A stretch of 64,000 bases of DNA from assembly GCA_965222615.1 (NCBI GenBank), contig CBDCUI010000008.1:416001-480000 (forward strand). Reading direction: 5' to 3'. A program made the position numbers and the translations under genes. Under the pieces are notes generated by a model. It had not been told where the DNA came from. It saw only the letters and a program-made list of their open reading frames with translations, and did no database searches. Positions 17,650 through 25,623 of this stretch are shown here, one piece after another; positions within the stretch are counted from its first letter, which is position 1, and every line of letters starts with the position of its first letter. Origin of the DNA: Gammaproteobacteria bacterium (GTDB lineage: Bacteria; Pseudomonadota; Gammaproteobacteria; UBA4575).

Positions 17650-17771
17650 GGAACCCCTGATTTCTCCTAATTCGGCGTTAAAAAATTGCTTTGAAATGCT
17701 CATTTACTAATTTGTAAACTCCGCTTTCCAAACAATTTTTTGCCTAGTATTAGAAAAAATCAGAGATTCTT
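17649..17771. mobile_element. MITE-like palindromic element, copy 2, starting at the htpG TAA stop
   Basis: Ends aggaacccctgattt / aaatcagagattctt; core tgctcatttac-N-gtaaactccgc. Confidence 0.7.
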
Positions 17772-18262: not shown

Positions 18263-18520
18263 GCAAGAAGTGAACGTTCAGTTCATTGGCTGACAATAAT
18301 TAGGTTTGTTTGTTCATTTTCTTTGCTTGTCCAAAGAAAACGAACCAAAAGAAAAGACACCCAAATACCTTGATTTGCAGCTACGCTGCAAATTTCCTGC
18401 AAAGAATCCTTGTTTTAATCGGCACGCTGCGAATCGACATCCTGTCTCACGCAGCTTGGTAAACATCCTTGTTTACAAACCAACAAACAAGAATTCTTAT
18501 CAGCAAGGCATAATGGGAGA
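18263..18520 (+). repeat. structured intergenic repeat, copy 2
   Basis: Two blocks identical to 7219-7318 (reverse complement); long stem aagaatccttgttt/aaacaagaattctt enclosing two CATCC hairpins. Confidence 0.85.
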
Positions 18521-18535
18521 ATAAGAAGCGTGCAG

Positions 18536-18969: not shown

Positions 18970-19626
18970 TTACAAAATACTTGCTAAATGTCCGTTTTGG
19001 CCTTTGATTTTGTTGGTGTAATGTAGTTCAAAGTCGTCGATTATGGATTTTTGCACAGAATCTAAATTTAGTAGATTGTGTTTCCACTTATTTAGCTTGG
19101 GAAAGTCGTTCCAGTCTAATAACTTCAGTTTCTCGTTCATGAAATCTAGTCGAATTAATAACGGTGCATAAGCAGCATCGATTAAAGCCAGCTCTTCACC
19201 ATTAAAGTAAGTTGAATGGTCTAATGTATCTTCGACACGCTGTAAACGTTTCACACATTCACTCATTTGAGTTTTCATATCTTTTTCATCTTTATGATTA
19301 GCGATCATATAAAGATCAGCTAAACAAGTACCGCCATATTCAATCCAAGCCCGATTTTTTGCCAGTGTAAGCGGATCAGAGGGCTTTAACGTCCCTGGGG
19401 TTACATCGTCAATAAACTCATTAATTACTGCGGATTCAAATAACACTTCGTGGTCATCTACTTTCAATACAGGTACTTTGCCTAATGGTGAAATCTTCGA
19501 GAACCAATCGGGAGGGCTATTTAAATCAATAAAGGTAATTTTATAGTCGCAGTTTTTGTGGTTTAGTGTAATAACACTGCGTTGCACAAACGGACATACA
19601 TTAAAGCTGATTAGTTCTAAGTCCAT
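18970..19626 (-). CDS. glutathione S-transferase family protein
   Basis: CPFVQR, SPLGKVPVL, LFESAVINEF. Confidence 0.95.
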   Translation of the reverse strand: MDLELISFNVCPFVQRSVITLNHKNCDYKITFIDLNSPPDWFSKISPLGKVPVLKVDDHEVLFESAVINEFIDDVTPGTLKPSDPLTLAKNRAWIEYGGTCLADLYMIANHKDEKDMKTQMSECVKRLQRVEDTLDHSTYFNGEELALIDAAYAPLLIRLDFMNEKLKLLDWNDFPKLNKWKHNLLNLDSVQKSIIDDFELHYTNKIKGQNGHLASIL

Positions 19627-19687
19627 AATTATTAGTATGAATGATTCACAAGTGCGGCATTATACGCAATACAAGTAGAATAGAAAT

Positions 19688-20077
19688 ATGAGTGCAGGCG
19701 AAAAAATTCGAATAGACAAATGGCTATGGGCCGCACGATTTTTCAAGACGCGGGCATTAGCCTCAAATGCTGTAAATGGCGGTAAGGTGCATGCAAATGG
19801 GAAACGAGTTAAATCTTCGCGGTCGGTGTGTGTTGGAGATAAATTAGAAATTAGTCGTAGCCACTCCCATGTCACTGTAATGGTAAAAGCTTTAAGCGAA
19901 AAACGTGGCCCTGCAAAACAAGCGCAAATGCTTTATGAGGAAACTAGTGAAAGTATAGAGAAACGTGAGTTAAATGCTCAGCAAAGAAAATTGCTAAATG
20001 CGGGACTGCCACAAACAAAAACTAGACCGGATAAACGTCAAAGACGCCAATTACGCAAAGTAAGCGGTAAGCTGTAA
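19688..20077 (+). CDS. hslR: ribosome-associated heat shock protein Hsp15 (S4 domain)
   Basis: RIDKWLWAARFFKTR, RGPAKQAQMLYEET, RPDKRQRR. Confidence 0.95.
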   Translation: MSAGEKIRIDKWLWAARFFKTRALASNAVNGGKVHANGKRVKSSRSVCVGDKLEISRSHSHVTVMVKALSEKRGPAKQAQMLYEETSESIEKRELNAQQRKLLNAGLPQTKTRPDKRQRRQLRKVSGKL

Positions 20078-20348
20078 TAAAAATATAATCGATAATTCAT
20101 TTGTCACATAAGTAGTTAATAATAACCTACTAATCTTTAATTAAATTATTGCCGTAACTAAAGATATATTGATTATTTTTGTGTAATAAACTTCACTTGA
20201 CGCAAAGATGACGTTAAGAGCAATATGGAAAAAAACAAAAAGGTCGTGTTTCGATCAAGAAAACCATGTTTCAAATATGGTTATAAGTAAATTGTTCTGA
20301 ATGCGATAAGTTTTAGTATAAATACATTCAAAAAAACAAAGGCAGTCG

Positions 20349-20948
20349 GTGAATTTTGTGAGTTGGGTAAACAGTTCATTGCATATCAATAAACTTTTAT
20401 TTGCGTGGTTAATTTTTCTGTATGGTACATGCCTTTGTGCCGACTTCAGTGGTACGACTCAGTTCAAAGCCTATACAACTGAGTCTCTGAAACCTGGGTA
20501 CAAACTGTACACCGATAAGCAAGATCGATTCAGTGCAGCGCAACCGCTTGGATGGGATGTTAATTTTCCAAGTCCTCCCTCGGATGGAGTGATTTTCTCC
20601 ATACAACCCTCTACTGATAGCAATGAAAATGTTGCGGTAAACGTTTTGGTTACACCTCCAGCAACAAATATTATCGAAGTTGCAGAAGCGACTGAAAACT
20701 ACTTGATTAATCAATCTGGTGTTGAAAAATTTGAACTGAAAAATGATCAAGATATTTCGCTATCAGGAGCAATAGGTGTTGAGCGAAGCGTTACCTTTGA
20801 ATTAAATGGTATACCGCTCTATGTGCGTACTTTGTATTTGCAACATTCTGCATACACGTTTGCACTAAGTTTTACTACTGGGGCAGATAATGTTGATAAT
20901 ATGAATTCTACTTTTGAACACATAATTCGGAATTTCACAATCATGTAA
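20349..20948 (+). CDS. exported PsbP/DcrB (DUF1795)-like protein
   Basis: N-terminal hydrophobic segment; Y..FS..P.GW start and F..II.NF end typical of the PsbP-like fold; start uncertain. Confidence 0.6.
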   Translation: MNFVSWVNSSLHINKLLFAWLIFLYGTCLCADFSGTTQFKAYTTESLKPGYKLYTDKQDRFSAAQPLGWDVNFPSPPSDGVIFSIQPSTDSNENVAVNVLVTPPATNIIEVAEATENYLINQSGVEKFELKNDQDISLSGAIGVERSVTFELNGIPLYVRTLYLQHSAYTFALSFTTGADNVDNMNSTFEHIIRNFTIM

Positions 20949-20956
20949 TTTAGTTT

Positions 20957-21169
20957 ATGAATACTGGTTATATTATTGGTCGCATAGTTGGTTTATTTAT
21001 TTTTCCTTTAATAGTTATGGGAATAATAGGTTTATTTCAATATGTGCGAACTAAAGATAAACAGCTTGCTAAGCGAACCATGTTTTCATGGTGGTCAATA
21101 GGATTGGGTATTGTGTTGCTAGTACTTGGGGTAATTGGCCAGATGGCAAATAATGTTGGGGAATTGTAG
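20957..21169 (+). CDS. small 2-TM membrane protein
   Basis: Two hydrophobic helices; 8 bp after the upstream gene. Confidence 0.7.
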   Translation: MNTGYIIGRIVGLFIFPLIVMGIIGLFQYVRTKDKQLAKRTMFSWWSIGLGIVLLVLGVIGQMANNVGEL

Positions 21170-21213
21170 AAAGCATTTTGAAAAATTTATTTTATTAAGA
21201 TTATACGAAGATT

Positions 21214-21702
21214 ATGAAGGTTGATTTTCTAGAATCGCAATCAAACGTTGGTTATCTGAATATGCCTATTCCTATGGAACGAGATAATCAAATTGCAGAA
21301 GTAGTTGGAGCAATAGATTCAGTTGAAGATTTTGCGCGAGTTAATTCGACGATTGAGAATCAACACGACAAGGTTTTGCGTGTATTCGCTGAAAGAATGG
21401 CGATGCGAGCAGTGCGGGAAAACAACCCATCCTATATTAAGCTAGGTTTTCTCGCAGTTGTACTTAGTTGTAACTCTTATGAAGAACGTGAAGCACAACT
21501 GATCCTACCATTGCTTTCTAGAGCAGCAGAGTTAATAGATCTCAATCCCGATTCAATTACTGAGGAGGTCATTAGTTTAGTAGACGGAGAGGCTCAGCAG
21601 TTTTTGCAGTCTTTTTTATCACGTAAGGACAAGTCTATTGAGTCAATGGGGTACTGTGAAAAAATGGATGATGATGGGTTCAAGTTTGTACGGCAGTGGT
21701 GA
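21214..21702 (+). CDS. putative toxin immunity protein
   Basis: Acidic, helical 162-aa protein directly upstream of the toxin. FAERMAMRAVRE and SIESMGY...GFKF resemble genes I recall next to Rhs-type toxins (unverified). Confidence 0.55.
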   Translation: MKVDFLESQSNVGYLNMPIPMERDNQIAEVVGAIDSVEDFARVNSTIENQHDKVLRVFAERMAMRAVRENNPSYIKLGFLAVVLSCNSYEEREAQLILPLLSRAAELIDLNPDSITEEVISLVDGEAQQFLQSFLSRKDKSIESMGYCEKMDDDGFKFVRQW

Positions 21703-21724
21703 TCAATCAATAGTCAACAAAAAA

Positions 21725-23353
21725 ATGATTTTAGTTAAAAGCAAACATCGAAACCTAGGCACCGTCAGCGTTGAGTATTCATTGGTGATGGCGATTACAC
21801 TTACAATCGTAATTGCTGCAGCTCAAGCGATGAATCCAAATATGGAGAGTTTCTTTGAGGCCGCTGCGACTAAAATAGAAAACTTTCTTGGTGGTGGTAG
21901 TAGCAATGTTAATTCTACTCCAGATTTAGATACAGAAACCTATGACTATGAAGTTAAAGCCGCCGATGCCAGGGCGCTAGAGCAACAAAGATTAGAAGCG
22001 GCTCAAGGTGGACAAGACACTGGTGGGGGTGGTGGATTCTGGAGTAAAGCTTGGGGGGCTACCAAACAAGTTGGTGGTTTTTTCAAAGGTGTTGGTGAAC
22101 AAGGTTGGGATACCGTAGTAGGTCTTGGAACACTTGCCTACGATGTACAGAGATTAACAGGGCCTACAGCACTTATATACGAAGTTTTCGATCCGGAAGG
22201 CCAGGCTGCTCTTAGGAATAAATACGCTCAGGTAGGGCAGGCAATTTGGAATAATCCTGGAGATGTAGCCTATGCCATTGTCGAACCTATTGTTACCGAC
22301 TGGAAAAATGGTAACTATGGTGAAGCCATCGGCCGTGGTACTTTTGAAGTGGCTACTGCCATATTTACGCCTACCAAACTCGGCAAAGCCGGAAAGATCG
22401 GTGATGCGGTCGAAGACATTGCCGGTGCCGCCAATGCCGTAGATAACGTTGTTACCAAGGCGGATGACATCAGTGATGCGGGACAGGTTGCGGGTAAAGT
22501 TGACGATGTAGGTAGGCTGAATGTCGATGATCTTTTAGGTAATCCAGATGACATTGTAGTGCTTGGTCGCCAGCCAGATACTGCAGTGGCTAAAGACTGG
22601 CCTGGTCATGTAATTTTAGATGTTCCGGCAGATCAATGGTCTATCGCACTAAATGATGCGTTTATCGAAGCTGCCATTAAACAACGTCGACGTATATACA
22701 TTGGAAGTCCAACTACTCGCCCAAATCTATACGATGATGTTGCTGAACGTCCTACAGTATTTGGTCGCGAGATGGAGCAATTACGCAACGCGGGTTATCG
22801 GCAAGTTGGCGATTATATGGAACCTCCAGATACTGGGGGTGTTGCATCTAGAATTGATAATTCTTTAACGGATGAAGCTTTACCTACTGATCCGCCCTAT
22901 AACCCACGAGAAACAAGAGACGCATTAGAAGAGCGATATGGTGCTGAAAATGTAGAATCTACTACTGTTCCAAATGCTAACGCCAAGAATGTAGAGCTTG
23001 CTGGTCAAAGACATCCTGAAACGGGGATTGTGTTTGATCAACGTGGTTTTCCAATATTTGATGATGTAGCAAAGTACGATACTCGTCTGTCAGCTGATGA
23101 GTTTTCTTCTGCAAGTTATAGAGGTCAAATGCGTATGGCTACTCGCGAGCTTCGTGATGCGATTGATAATGGACAAATTCCTGCTTCTCAGTTTACTAAT
23201 GTGCAGTTGAGAGCAATTCGAGCAGGGAAAGATAAAATTCCAGGCTATACTTGGCACCATCACCAAGATATTGGAAGAATGCAACTAGTGCCTGAAGATA
23301 TTCATCGTAGAACTGGTCATATAGGTGGAGAAAGGATGGCTCAAGGAAACTAA
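21725..23353 (+). CDS. polymorphic toxin with N-terminal Flp/Tad prepilin-like segment and C-terminal WHH (HNH/EndoVII) nuclease
   Basis: KHRNLG|TVSVEY plus hydrophobic helix; Gly/Ala-rich pre-toxin region; FDQRGFPIFD and GYTWHHHQD...MQLV...H...GH.GG; ATG 21725 follows the upstream stop. Confidence 0.85.
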   Translation: MILVKSKHRNLGTVSVEYSLVMAITLTIVIAAAQAMNPNMESFFEAAATKIENFLGGGSSNVNSTPDLDTETYDYEVKAADARALEQQRLEAAQGGQDTGGGGGFWSKAWGATKQVGGFFKGVGEQGWDTVVGLGTLAYDVQRLTGPTALIYEVFDPEGQAALRNKYAQVGQAIWNNPGDVAYAIVEPIVTDWKNGNYGEAIGRGTFEVATAIFTPTKLGKAGKIGDAVEDIAGAANAVDNVVTKADDISDAGQVAGKVDDVGRLNVDDLLGNPDDIVVLGRQPDTAVAKDWPGHVILDVPADQWSIALNDAFIEAAIKQRRRIYIGSPTTRPNLYDDVAERPTVFGREMEQLRNAGYRQVGDYMEPPDTGGVASRIDNSLTDEALPTDPPYNPRETRDALEERYGAENVESTTVPNANAKNVELAGQRHPETGIVFDQRGFPIFDDVAKYDTRLSADEFSSASYRGQMRMATRELRDAIDNGQIPASQFTNVQLRAIRAGKDKIPGYTWHHHQDIGRMQLVPEDIHRRTGHIGGERMAQGN

Positions 23354-23354
23354 A

Positions 23355-23828
23355 TTGCGTGACGATATAATTTGGGATTCATATTACGGTGAAGGAGATA
23401 TTGGTCTAGTTCAAGACTTTGAAAAGAGTATCAATCAAGTATTACCTACCGAGTATAAAAAAATTGTTAGTAAATACAATGGTGCAGTTCCTGAGCCGGA
23501 TGCACTTAAGTTTTACAGTCGCCTTGTAAAAAAAGAAGTGGTTATTGGTGTTGGGGTATTTCTAGCTTACGGCAATATTGAGTCACCATCTGAAACCATG
23601 GAATGGAGCTACACGAATCGACCAGAAAACTTTCCTAAGAATTTTATTGCGTTTTCTCTTGTTGGAAATGGTGACATGATTTGTTTTGATTATAATGACG
23701 TGAGCCAAAATCAAGAACCGAAAATTGTGATATGGCATCATGAAGCAAGTCAACCTGAAGAGCTCTTTTCACCATTAGCGGATAATTTTTCTAAATTTCT
23801 GGATGTGATATTTTTTGAGGAGGATTAA
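23355..23828 (+). CDS. SMI1/KNR4 (SUKH) family immunity protein
   Basis: FEK...LPTEYK...YNG, GNGDMICFDY...PKIVIWHHE, LADNFSKFL; directly after the toxin (TTG 23355, alternative GTG 23325). Confidence 0.92.
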   Translation: MRDDIIWDSYYGEGDIGLVQDFEKSINQVLPTEYKKIVSKYNGAVPEPDALKFYSRLVKKEVVIGVGVFLAYGNIESPSETMEWSYTNRPENFPKNFIAFSLVGNGDMICFDYNDVSQNQEPKIVIWHHEASQPEELFSPLADNFSKFLDVIFFEED

Positions 23829-24107
23829 TCGGGAACTTCGTATCCAAAGGTAAAAAAACTTATGCGCTTTTTAAAGTGTTCAATGGGCTGACTACAGATG
23901 GAAATCTCGCATGTTATGCGGCTGCACCGTTAATCAATGAGGATTTCGATCTAAGCTATTATTTTGAATTGTAGTAGCTTGGTAGGTTATATGTGTTAAC
24001 TAATATGGTAGTACTAGTAGCCAGACGAGCATTAATGTCGAAAGACATCTGAGATAATAGGTTTAGTAAACGTAAATTGAGAGGGTAGGGTCTAAAGACC
24101 AGTCAAT

Positions 24108-24941
24108 TTATTCAAGTATTTTAAATTGAATAACAGATTTTTTGCCATCTCTTACGGGTTCCCCCATACACATCACACCATCAGAGATAAGAGTTTGTTC
24201 GTTTTTAGACACATGAATTTTTTGACCGTTATTAAATTTTATATATGTGCCATTGTAGCTTTCATCTTGAAGCAGGAATTTGCCTTCTTTACGTATAATT
24301 TTTGCATGTGCTCTAGAGACATATTTGCCTTGTACGATAATGTCACAGCTTGGGTCTCTGCCTACGTGGAAAACATCTTGTTCCTCAGATAGTACGTGTT
24401 TGTCACCTTTAAAGGATAGTTCAATGGTGGCTTTATTTTTTTTCTCCTTCTCCTTCTCCTTCTCCTTCTCCTTCTCTATTTCTAGAGGTGGTAAATTTTC
24501 TTTAGCTATAGGTTCAGCATCCAGTTGTTCAGGTTGTTTGGTTTCGATGGCATTTTTATTGGCATTCGTTTGTTTTTCCTTAGCATCAGAACTATCAGTA
24601 TCATCTGTTTGAGTAAGAATCTGAGATTCTAGGTCTTTTATAGAAGCATCGATTTGAGACGCTGGGCCTTTTTCTTCCTGAAGTGCTTCTTCCAGTTCTT
24701 GCACCTTGGATTCACTAATATCTAAAGAGGGTTGTACATCACTTAAAGTTGGCGGTATAGGGCGCTTTGAGGACTTAGAATTTTCCCCTGCAGCTTTTTC
24801 TTGTTCTGTATCAGTTTTTGCGATGCGACGATCTACAAGTCTGCGACGATTTTTTGTAACAAGGACCCCGTCACTATCAATAAAAGGATAGGTGACTTTT
24901 CTGCCCCACTTGCGTCGTTCACTATTTCTACGTTCAGCCAT
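24108..24941 (-). CDS. FHA domain protein with Arg-rich N-terminal module
   Basis: VGRDPSCDI, VSRAHA, DESYNGT FHA motifs; acidic linker with EK repeat. Confidence 0.88.
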   Translation of the reverse strand: MAERRNSERRKWGRKVTYPFIDSDGVLVTKNRRRLVDRRIAKTDTEQEKAAGENSKSSKRPIPPTLSDVQPSLDISESKVQELEEALQEEKGPASQIDASIKDLESQILTQTDDTDSSDAKEKQTNANKNAIETKQPEQLDAEPIAKENLPPLEIEKEKEKEKEKEKKNKATIELSFKGDKHVLSEEQDVFHVGRDPSCDIIVQGKYVSRAHAKIIRKEGKFLLQDESYNGTYIKFNNGQKIHVSKNEQTLISDGVMCMGEPVRDGKKSVIQFKILE

Positions 24942-25122: not shown

Positions 25123-25623
25123 CTAAGGACAGAAATAGTGGATAAAATCTTTCTCTACGTACTCGATTGGGGTGCCTAGGCTTACAATGCCACTACCATG
25201 TAAGGTTAATTTTTCACCCATTAAAAATATTTCACCTTCGTCGTTTTTTATATAAGTACCGTTTGTACTGTGATCGGTAACCGTAAATTCTTCATTATCG
25301 TATTCAAATCTTGCATGTTGGCGAGATGTATAGCGGTTTTGAAAGACTAGCTCACAATTTGAAGCTCGACCAACGATTACAGAAGGGGAATCAATTAATA
25401 ACTCACACACGTCATCTTTGTACCAAAGAAATAAGCGCGATTTTGTTGTATCACTTTTCTCGCCACTATGAATTTCTATATTATTAATCCTGCGATCAGG
25501 TATTCGACGCCTATCTTCTCTGACTAAGGTTTGCTCACTATCAAAAAAAGGAAAAGCTGGGCTGTGCATCTGTGCACGGCGATCGCCATGTGTCCTACGT
25601 TCGATTCTTACTTGTGAGCTCAT
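25123..25623 (-). CDS. FHA domain protein with Arg-rich N-terminal module
   Basis: VGRASNCEL, TSRQHA, DHSTNGT FHA motifs. Confidence 0.88.
   Translation of the reverse strand: MSSQVRIERRTHGDRRAQMHSPAFPFFDSEQTLVREDRRRIPDRRINNIEIHSGEKSDTTKSRLFLWYKDDVCELLIDSPSVIVGRASNCELVFQNRYTSRQHARFEYDNEEFTVTDHSTNGTYIKNDEGEIFLMGEKLTLHGSGIVSLGTPIEYVEKDFIHYFCP

Follow-up and report, generated by a model that had tools for sequence, protein, structure and literature searches.

We analyzed a 64,000-nucleotide stretch of DNA (the window) from a gammaproteobacterium of the lineage UBA4575 (assembly GCA_965222615.1, contig CBDCUI010000008.1, positions 416,001 to 480,000 of the forward strand), in which a predicted toxin gene begins with what resembles a pilin of the Flp (type IVc, Tad) kind. 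The toxin open reading frame (ORF) occupies window positions 21725-23353 on the plus strand, runs from an ATG at 21725 to a stop codon at 23351-23353, and encodes 542 residues. Its translated N-terminus reads MILVKSKHRNLG/TVSVEYSLVMAITLTIVIAAAQAMNPNMESFFEAAATKIENFLGGG, the slash marking the predicted cleavage site. The first 12 residues, MILVKSKHRNLG (21725..21760, +), were identified from the translation as a basic, class III (prepilin-type) leader with Gly at position -1, and they are followed by a complete Flp-pilin module (residues 13-56; 21761..21892, +) composed of TVSVEY, a 20-residue hydrophobic stretch that would form a helix, and an amphipathic helix, ESFFEAAATKIENFLG, after which the sequence continues with GGSS. 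A Gly/Ser-rich variable linker (residues 57-100; 21893..22024, +), visible as weakly conserved columns in alignment A1, leads to a predicted helical pretoxin module that belongs to no Pfam family (residues ~101-235; 22025..22429, +; motifs QVGGFFKG and EPIVTDWKNGNYGEAIGRGTFE). Next come a second, middle toxin-type domain of alpha/beta character (residues ~275-370; 22547..22834, +; motifs GRQPDTAVAKDWPGH and FGREMEQLRNAGY) and a C-terminal Colicin-DNase/WHH (HNH-EndoVII) nuclease domain (23030..23350, +), with TWHHHQD at residues 508-514. The gene is preceded by a 162-residue ORF (21214..21702, +) that ends 22 bp before the toxin start, and followed by a SUKH (SMI1/KNR4) immunity gene (23325..23828, +; Pfam SMI1_KNR4 1e-18, SUKH_6 1.1e-17). 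An earlier, sequence-only reading of this locus had described the ORF, leader, G/TVSVEY, nuclease, and SMI1/KNR4 gene correctly, including their coordinates; its layout of pilin-like head, WHH, and SUKH stands, but it overlooked the middle toxin-type domain and the upstream immunity candidate.

Pfam searches placed Colicin-DNase (PF12639) at residues 436-534 (E 3.7e-21, 76.2 bits; cut-off 25) and WHH (PF14414) at residues 502-541 (E 9e-16, 57.8 bits; cut-off 25.1). With a profile score above the cut-off and the TWHHHQD signature, the C-terminal domain is assigned to the WHH-nuclease class, and its activity is predicted. No further Pfam family was found in the toxin at E <= 1, hence no PAAR, VgrG, Rhs, or LXG trafficking domain, as the sequence-only reading had noted, and an NCBIfam scan of the toxin gave no match. 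The ATG at 21725 is consistent with the starts of three relatives (P0004, P0005, and P0006), which lie 10-12 residues ahead of the Gly. The whole gene was spanned without differences by contigs from public runs covering 19597-24429 and 19597-23462. However, the runs belong to a single study, among whose samples the source sample may be, and they do not constitute independent support; a third set gave fragmentary cover only and added nothing on variants.

To characterize the head, we compared it with the Flp pilin encoded elsewhere in the same genome. BLASTP aligned toxin residues 8-56 with the resident Flp at 53% identity over 49 residues (E 1e-18). The alignment is ungapped, starts five residues ahead of the cleavage Gly, and ends with the last residue of Flp, so that the toxin carries a complete Flp module and not a mere motif. 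A profile of the toxin's seven closest relatives (A3) matched the resident Flp with an hhalign probability of 98.1% over 50 columns, and AlphaFold2 (AF2) placed helices at residues 15-36 and 41-55 of the head, with low confidence. The cleavage-site context, KHRNLG/TVSVEYSLVMAITLTIVIAAAQA, combines the characters of a pilin: a basic leader, Gly, Glu at +5, Tyr at +6, and a hydrophobic helix. When all open frames of the 3.1-Mb genome were searched for G-x4-E-[YF] plus a hydrophobic run, 6 matches were returned, i.e., the Flp pilin, a 63-residue Flp-like ORF, a TadE-like protein, the toxin, and two internal membrane segments of unrelated proteins; just 4 N-terminal sites of this prepilin kind exist in the genome. 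We classify the toxin's N-terminus as a genuine Flp pilin module, as opposed to a generic signal peptide, and as a paralogue of the genome's own Flp. The pilin-like character that the sequence-only reading had ascribed to it is borne out by both the identity to the resident Flp and the hhalign comparison.

A word-indexed search with toxin residues 1-430 returned 27 proteins, and a profile search with alignment A1 against 1.84 billion cluster representatives returned 766 at E <= 1e-3 and 320 at E <= 1e-10; a metagenome scan with profile A3 returned 1 locus. In all, 167 proteins were collected, of which a prepilin-type N-terminal pattern marked 52. Five of these matches (P0090, P0099, P0111, P0120, and P0152) were removed because they lay inside the pretoxin module or did not represent an N-terminal head, leaving 47 Flp-type heads, the toxin itself included, and thus 46 relatives. 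Over the aligned front, P0004 is 73% identical to the toxin and ends in a WHH nuclease, P0005 is 70% identical and ends in a DddA-like deaminase, and P0006 is 44% identical with an unnamed C-terminal domain. Pfam named 15 C-terminal toxin families in 22 of the 46 Flp-headed relatives (WHH, DddA-like, DUF2380, Ntox46, Endonuclea_NS_2, LHH, EndoU, HNH, Ribonuclease, Toxin-deaminase, MafB19-deam, AHH, Tox-SHH, RNAse_A_bac, and CdiA_C_tRNase), a self-cleaving PT-HINT domain in 10 of 46, and no family in 20 of 46. Since their C-terminal families vary, the Flp-headed relatives are classified as a polymorphic toxin family, with a constant head and pretoxin module and at least 15 predicted toxin families. 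Both a conserved front with differing C-termini and an adjoining candidate immunity gene, the hallmarks of such toxins, were found. Relatives keep the head and swap the toxin, a pattern for which the sequence-only reading had suggested searching.

Conservation around the predicted cleavage site was also considered. Among the 150 profile matches listed, 41 begin to align at or before profile position 14, and all but one of these (40 of 41, P0012 being the exception) have Gly at -1 and Glu or Gln at +5. The leaders of the relatives are basic, 9-44 residues long, and end in a Gly that the search pattern required. The sequence-only reading had looked to conservation of Gly, Glu +5, and Tyr +6. Gly and Glu/Gln are indeed kept, although both are partly imposed by the search pattern, but at position +6, which the pattern left free, Tyr occurs in only 13 of the 47 heads; the residue is aromatic in 27 of 47 (Trp in 13 and Phe in 1, besides Tyr), Ala in 9, and Lys in 8.

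The pretoxin module, which has invariant columns in alignment A1 and accounts for the 766 cluster representatives at E <= 1e-3, matched unnamed clusters of the ESM Atlas at 0.94 and 0.91. We scanned the heads of 96 relatives of the non-Flp kind, leaving out 24 others. WXG100 heads were found in 19 of the 96, Tox-PAAR-like heads in 18, eCIS_core (DUF4157) in 7, SpvB/TcdB in 2, and Rhs only in 2, while 48 had no named head; 33 loci from species genomes had the same spread of heads behind the module. Flp is the largest single head class in the collected sample. The pretoxin module is therefore assigned as a common element that links toxins to predicted heads of type VII secretion systems (T7SS), type VI secretion systems (T6SS), extracellular contractile injection systems (eCIS), Tc and Rhs systems, and also to Flp heads. 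Because the module otherwise follows known export heads, the Flp head occupies the trafficking-domain slot.

The middle domain is missing from the otherwise similar P0004. A domain of this type forms the extreme C-terminus of P0170, P0013 (Rhs), P0020 and the toxin at locus L037 (both with WXG100 heads), and P0033 (Flp head); since it ends Rhs-, WXG100-, and Flp-headed toxins, it behaves as a toxin domain. We observed an invariant Glu and a GAGY-like motif in it. AF2 modeled it as a small alpha/beta domain with a predicted local distance difference test score (pLDDT) of ~90 over model residues 10-100, and Foldseek against the PDB returned nothing at E <= 1e-3. The best VIA-align Z score was 4.4, with TIR domains, MilB, nucleoside deoxyribosyltransferases, and the Pantoea ARC toxin 9ro8 among the tied matches, and the ESM Atlas returned an ADP-ribosyl-cyclase cluster at 0.80; these were kept as leads only and no fold was assigned. 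The ORF at 21214-21702 matched no Pfam or NCBIfam family. In a pairwise comparison it shared 25% identity over 128 residues (E 2e-9) with the gene directly after the L037 toxin, and it is probably the immunity protein of the middle domain; the predicted complex of the two scored 0.18 (mark 0.32). Considering this resemblance to the L037 downstream gene, the locus probably consists of an immunity gene, a two-warhead toxin, and a second immunity gene. The latter may start at GTG 23325, overlapping the toxin, or at the in-frame TTG 23355, 7 nt past AAGGA at 23343-23347. The sequence-only reading's pairing of WHH with SUKH as toxin and immunity agrees with Table 2 of PMC3482391, where this pairing is listed.

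A Tad locus, for which the sequence-only reading had suggested looking, exists on contig C9 of the genome. The sole ORF in the genome passing the Flp_Fap model is the 81-residue resident Flp (C9:127791-128036; 33.9-34.2 bits). Around it are genes for RcpC/CpaB, a secretin, a TPR-T2SSF protein, and TadG-like and TadE-like proteins, and the locus also encodes a 709-residue protein in which a TadZ-like ParA domain is fused to a TadA-type ATPase. Downstream in the same locus is a second set, consisting of an MshEN-type T2SSE ATPase, a T2SSF protein, three FHA proteins, a Ser/Thr kinase, and a TadE gene. This second ATPase/platform set is contiguous with tadE and with a second toxin gene, as directly after tadE comes a 1457-residue Rhs protein ending in a WHH nuclease, and then a SUKH gene. 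The locus extends over ~120-146 kb of the contig, and the Rhs-WHH gene stands beside tadE without an obvious T6SS. That the genome's two WHH-SUKH pairs are recent copies of each other was considered and rejected, the WHH domains being 38% identical over 52 residues only and the SUKH proteins failing to align. Since the genome, which is 99.8% complete, contains no match to TssC, a T6SS route is unlikely.

A24 prepilin peptidases are represented in the genome by a single protein, a 296-residue PilD (C8:369919-370809, -) in a pilC-pilD-coaE arrangement, and a permissive tblastn search of the genome with PilD revealed no paralogue. Besides this one peptidase, the genome has a full Tad core and two pilins of the Flp type. 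The enzyme serving the resident Flp must serve the toxin too, and PilD is the sole candidate. Next to its Tad core genes, the C9 locus encodes a Ser/Thr kinase as well as three FHA proteins, and the genome gave no peptidase of the KilA type.

Physical links between toxins and Tad genes were found in other genomes. In an actinomycetotal metagenome-assembled genome (MAG), an Flp-headed AHH toxin gene with an Imm11 gene (locus L016) lies 3.4 kb upstream of, and on the same strand as, a tad operon with genes for RcpC, TadZ, TadE, CpaF, TadB, and TadC; this evidence rests on genome G042, which is flagged as unpublished. In a Pseudomonadales MAG, one 1698-residue frame (L033, 11-5104), cut by the contig end, has a TadE head, which scores above the cut-off at 35.6 bits, and continues through DUF6531 and RHS repeats to the pretoxin module. 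Over 1202 residues, the Rhs body of L033 shares 37% identity with the Rhs-WHH protein encoded after tadE in the present genome, and we conclude that predicted TadE and Rhs parts that are fused in L033 are here encoded by adjacent genes. In whole-genome searches of four MAGs with such toxins, three gave a match to TadE and three to an A24 peptidase, the genome lacking a match differing between the two.

Taken together, we favor, with modest confidence, a model in which the gene encodes a two-warhead antibacterial polymorphic toxin that has a whole Flp pilin as its trafficking domain and is exported via the Tad system. The pilin helix would insert the toxin in the inner membrane with its cargo in the periplasm, and the leader would be cut after Gly12, with PilD as the only candidate enzyme. 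The Tad machine of contig C9 would then lift the toxin into an Flp filament during its growth, either as a rare subunit or at the tip. In the filament, the cargo would hang from the Flp C-terminus, on the surface, and hence cross the secretin and be presented to a touched neighbor. The pretoxin module may aid entry, and the nuclease and the second domain would kill cells that are without both immunity proteins. Display of a cargo appears feasible because the surface of the Caulobacter Tad pilus is made up of the C-terminal half of Flp, as the accessible text of PMC10710030 describes. The sequence-only reading, which had proposed processing by a prepilin peptidase and display or export through a Tad pilus, is partly supported: comparative evidence argues well for it, and the one gap is the lack of a TadV.

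Several observations weigh against this model. The Flp_Fap family (PF04964; gathering score 32.2 bits) gave no match to the full toxin at E <= 1 or to its first 70 residues at E <= 10, and a whole-genome search with the family at E <= 10 did not include the toxin site, such that the comparison of the head with this model proposed by the sequence-only reading yielded no score. Among the Flp-headed relatives, P0052 alone matched, at 24.8 bits, which is below the cut-off. In Pfam and NCBIfam searches of the head, the only matches were Class_IIIsignal (E 0.29) and SteA-like_C (E 0.11), which were set aside. Flp pilins have 40-60 mature residues and no C-terminal domain, and the predicted mature toxin, at 530 residues, is not of this size. 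The full-length AF2 model was poor (pLDDT 46), and it was rejected as structural evidence because of its low quality. Moreover, a dedicated TadV/CpaA was not found in the genome searches, and Pseudomonas aeruginosa Flp requires its own peptidase, FppA. The toxin gene on contig C8 is unlinked to the Tad locus on C9. Of the three Flp-headed loci for which flanking DNA was available, two (L009 and L034) have no tad gene in that DNA, and genome G041 had no TadE match. Finally, we know of no precedent among Flp pilins for a folded cargo of ~490 residues on a filament of 45-50 Angstrom.

Some of these points would be accommodated if the head were a mere membrane signal-anchor that directs the toxin to the inner membrane or the periplasm via the signal recognition particle (SRP) and Sec, with exit by lysis, vesicles, or an unrelated route, or with an effect on cells only once the toxin is released, and no involvement of a pilus. 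Failure to pass the Flp_Fap model, the missing TadV, and the lack of linkage to the Tad locus all fit this explanation, and Zhang et al. (2012), in the accessible text, list the type II secretion system (T2SS) for Tox-WHH, where heads of this kind may have been filed. However, an anchor would have no need of a mature pilin retained in full, down to the C-terminal amphipathic helix, with 53% identity to the resident Flp, nor of Gly (-1) and Glu (+5) across phyla. The slot is elsewhere filled by export heads, and L016 and L033 tie toxins physically to Tad genes. We therefore consider a simple anchor unlikely.

Alternatively, another type IV filament machine might handle the toxin, either the type IVa (T4a) system that owns PilD or the MshEN ATPase set acting as a secretion piston. 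PilD being the sole prepilin peptidase found would agree with this, as would the two ATPases encoded on C9 along with a pair of T2SSF proteins, the second set being contiguous with tadE and the Rhs-WHH toxin gene. In contrast, the head is Flp-like and not T4a-like, since it lacks Phe or Met at +1, has the size of a mature Flp, and finds its best match in the resident Flp, and the neighbor of the L016 toxin is a plain Tad operon. Handling by such a machine is improbable in our judgment.

The distribution of the gene also had to be weighed. It was not found in 40 relatives, including the same genus, or in 399 other genomes of the class; a search for RcpC was positive for 7 of these 40 relatives, but G001, the genome from the same genus, gave no match. 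Window positions 20070-24100 have no DNA match in G001, and G+C content is 46-47.5% inside the toxin, as compared to ~36-38% in the flanks. The site is variable. At the matching position in G001 we noted a 236-residue ORF (L046, 2062-2772, -), which we read by eye as an IS200/RayT-like transposase, and a small ORF read by eye as a lipoprotein. Although the failure to find it in the 40 relatives and the 399 genomes, the missing DNA match in G001, the raised G+C content, and the transposase-like ORF could suggest an inactive recent import whose head is left over from a donor with a matching Tad system, this is very improbable, considering that the 542-codon ORF and both candidate immunity genes are intact, that the head resembles the host's Flp, and that a patchy distribution is normal for polymorphic toxins.

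The neighborhood of the toxin was also inspected. At window positions 20349-21169, on the toxin's strand and in the same non-syntenic segment, lie genes for a PsbP/DcrB-like exported protein (199 residues) and a 70-residue two-helix membrane protein. On the opposite strand, 24108-24941(-) and 25123-25623(-) encode two FHA-domain proteins with Arg-rich N-termini (ERRxxERRKWGR...DRR). The first has a counterpart of 257 residues in G001 and the second lies within DNA matching G001. Since both are kept in G001, where the toxin and RcpC are missing, these FHA genes do not belong to the toxin cassette, and their role as part of the system was rejected. Just past the first syntenic block, at 18306-18524, ~100 bases are 86% identical to other places in G001, and two short repeat-like matches (74-76% identity) occur at ~17650-17753, inside that block. 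A promoter and terminator scan found no more sites than in shuffled sequence.

Tad pili are widespread in prokaryotes, with one or more kil/tad gene homologues in 21,258 of 38,791 complete genomes (PMC12075869, accessible text), and are known mainly for adhesion and surface sensing. If delivery of the toxin through a Tad pilus is correct, then polymorphic toxins, which are classed by the export system of their head (type V secretion system [T5SS], T6SS, T7SS, eCIS, Tc, and others), would gain the Tad pilus as a further route. The Flp-headed toxin and the Rhs-WHH protein encoded next to tadE could then be ammunition for one Tad machine regulated by FHA proteins and a kinase. More broadly, and tentatively, Tad pili may be a widespread, unrecognized toxin-delivery route across phyla, with Flp or TadE modules as trafficking domains and the pilus itself bringing nucleases, deaminases, and further warheads to cells that it touches, a generalization that we regard as possible without leaning toward it. 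At least 46 Flp-headed cluster representatives with interchangeable warheads, together with the TadE-Rhs fusion, provide a concrete candidate for the mechanism. The analysis also yielded two unnamed modules, i.e., the pretoxin module with its 766 representatives and a small alpha/beta toxin-type domain with a candidate immunity family.

Literature searches, the scope of which extended to sources other than subscription journals and bioRxiv supplements, found no analysis of an Flp-headed toxin family or of Tad-dependent toxin export. The words pilin, pilus, and prepilin are absent from 300,000 characters of Zhang et al. (2012; PMC3482391), and Flp is missing from the accessible text of a trafficking-domain list of 2025, which gives VgrG, PAAR, LXG, DUF4157, WXG100, SpvB, TANFOR, Phage_Mu_F, and FhaB (PMC11796102). 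However, a 2025 study of ARC (CD38-like) toxins lists 'Flp pilins' among joined elements (PMC12605009, J Biol Chem). The statement of the sequence-only reading that it knew of no such established delivery route in Gammaproteobacteria is therefore qualified: the searches found no family analysis in print, but one passing mention exists.

Among known systems, the closest in layout are the polymorphic toxins, such as WXG100/LXG (T7SS) or PAAR-like (T6SS) toxins that have a WHH nuclease and SUKH immunity, which share with the present protein a trafficking head, a pretoxin region, a variable toxin, and an adjacent immunity gene, and for which Tox-WHH and Imm-SUKH are listed in the accessible text (PMC3482391). 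The toxin described here differs by its Flp pilin head and by two tandem toxin-type domains, with one immunity candidate upstream. The ARC study likewise has both a toxin domain and a mention of Flp pilins, but its accessible text contains no analysis of the head, the family, or Tad dependence, while its figure or supplements may show the architecture. With the Flp/Fap pilins (PF04964), such as Caulobacter PilA and Aggregatibacter Flp1, the head has in common a basic leader, G/xxxxEY, a hydrophobic helix, and, at the C-terminus, a short amphipathic one. Those pilins are 40-60 residues when mature and are without a C-terminal domain, according to the accessible text of PMC10710030, whereas the toxin carries ~490 residues of cargo. 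Grafting of an unrelated domain onto a pilin through a short linker is found in the modular type IV pilins PilB and PilC of Streptococcus sanguinis (PMC10191384, accessible text), as in the toxin. The Kil system of Myxococcus, as far as the accessible text describes it, performs Tad-dependent contact killing of prey with interchangeable minor-pilin tips and a toxin stated to be unknown (PMC8460266; PMC12075869), and its features include a Tad core, many FHA-domain proteins, its own peptidase KilA, and sets of Tip minor pilins (PMC8460266). Its large Tad minor pilins, the 'Tips', display a grafted domain at the filament tip (PMC12075869), as we propose for the toxin, and the present model, if true, would also point to the kind of effector still missing for Tad-like killers such as Kil. 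The grafts known from the accessible parts of this literature are adhesive or recognition domains on T4a or TadE/TadG-type minor pilins, whereas here a predicted nuclease toxin, accompanied by candidate immunity genes, is carried by an Flp of the major-pilin type.

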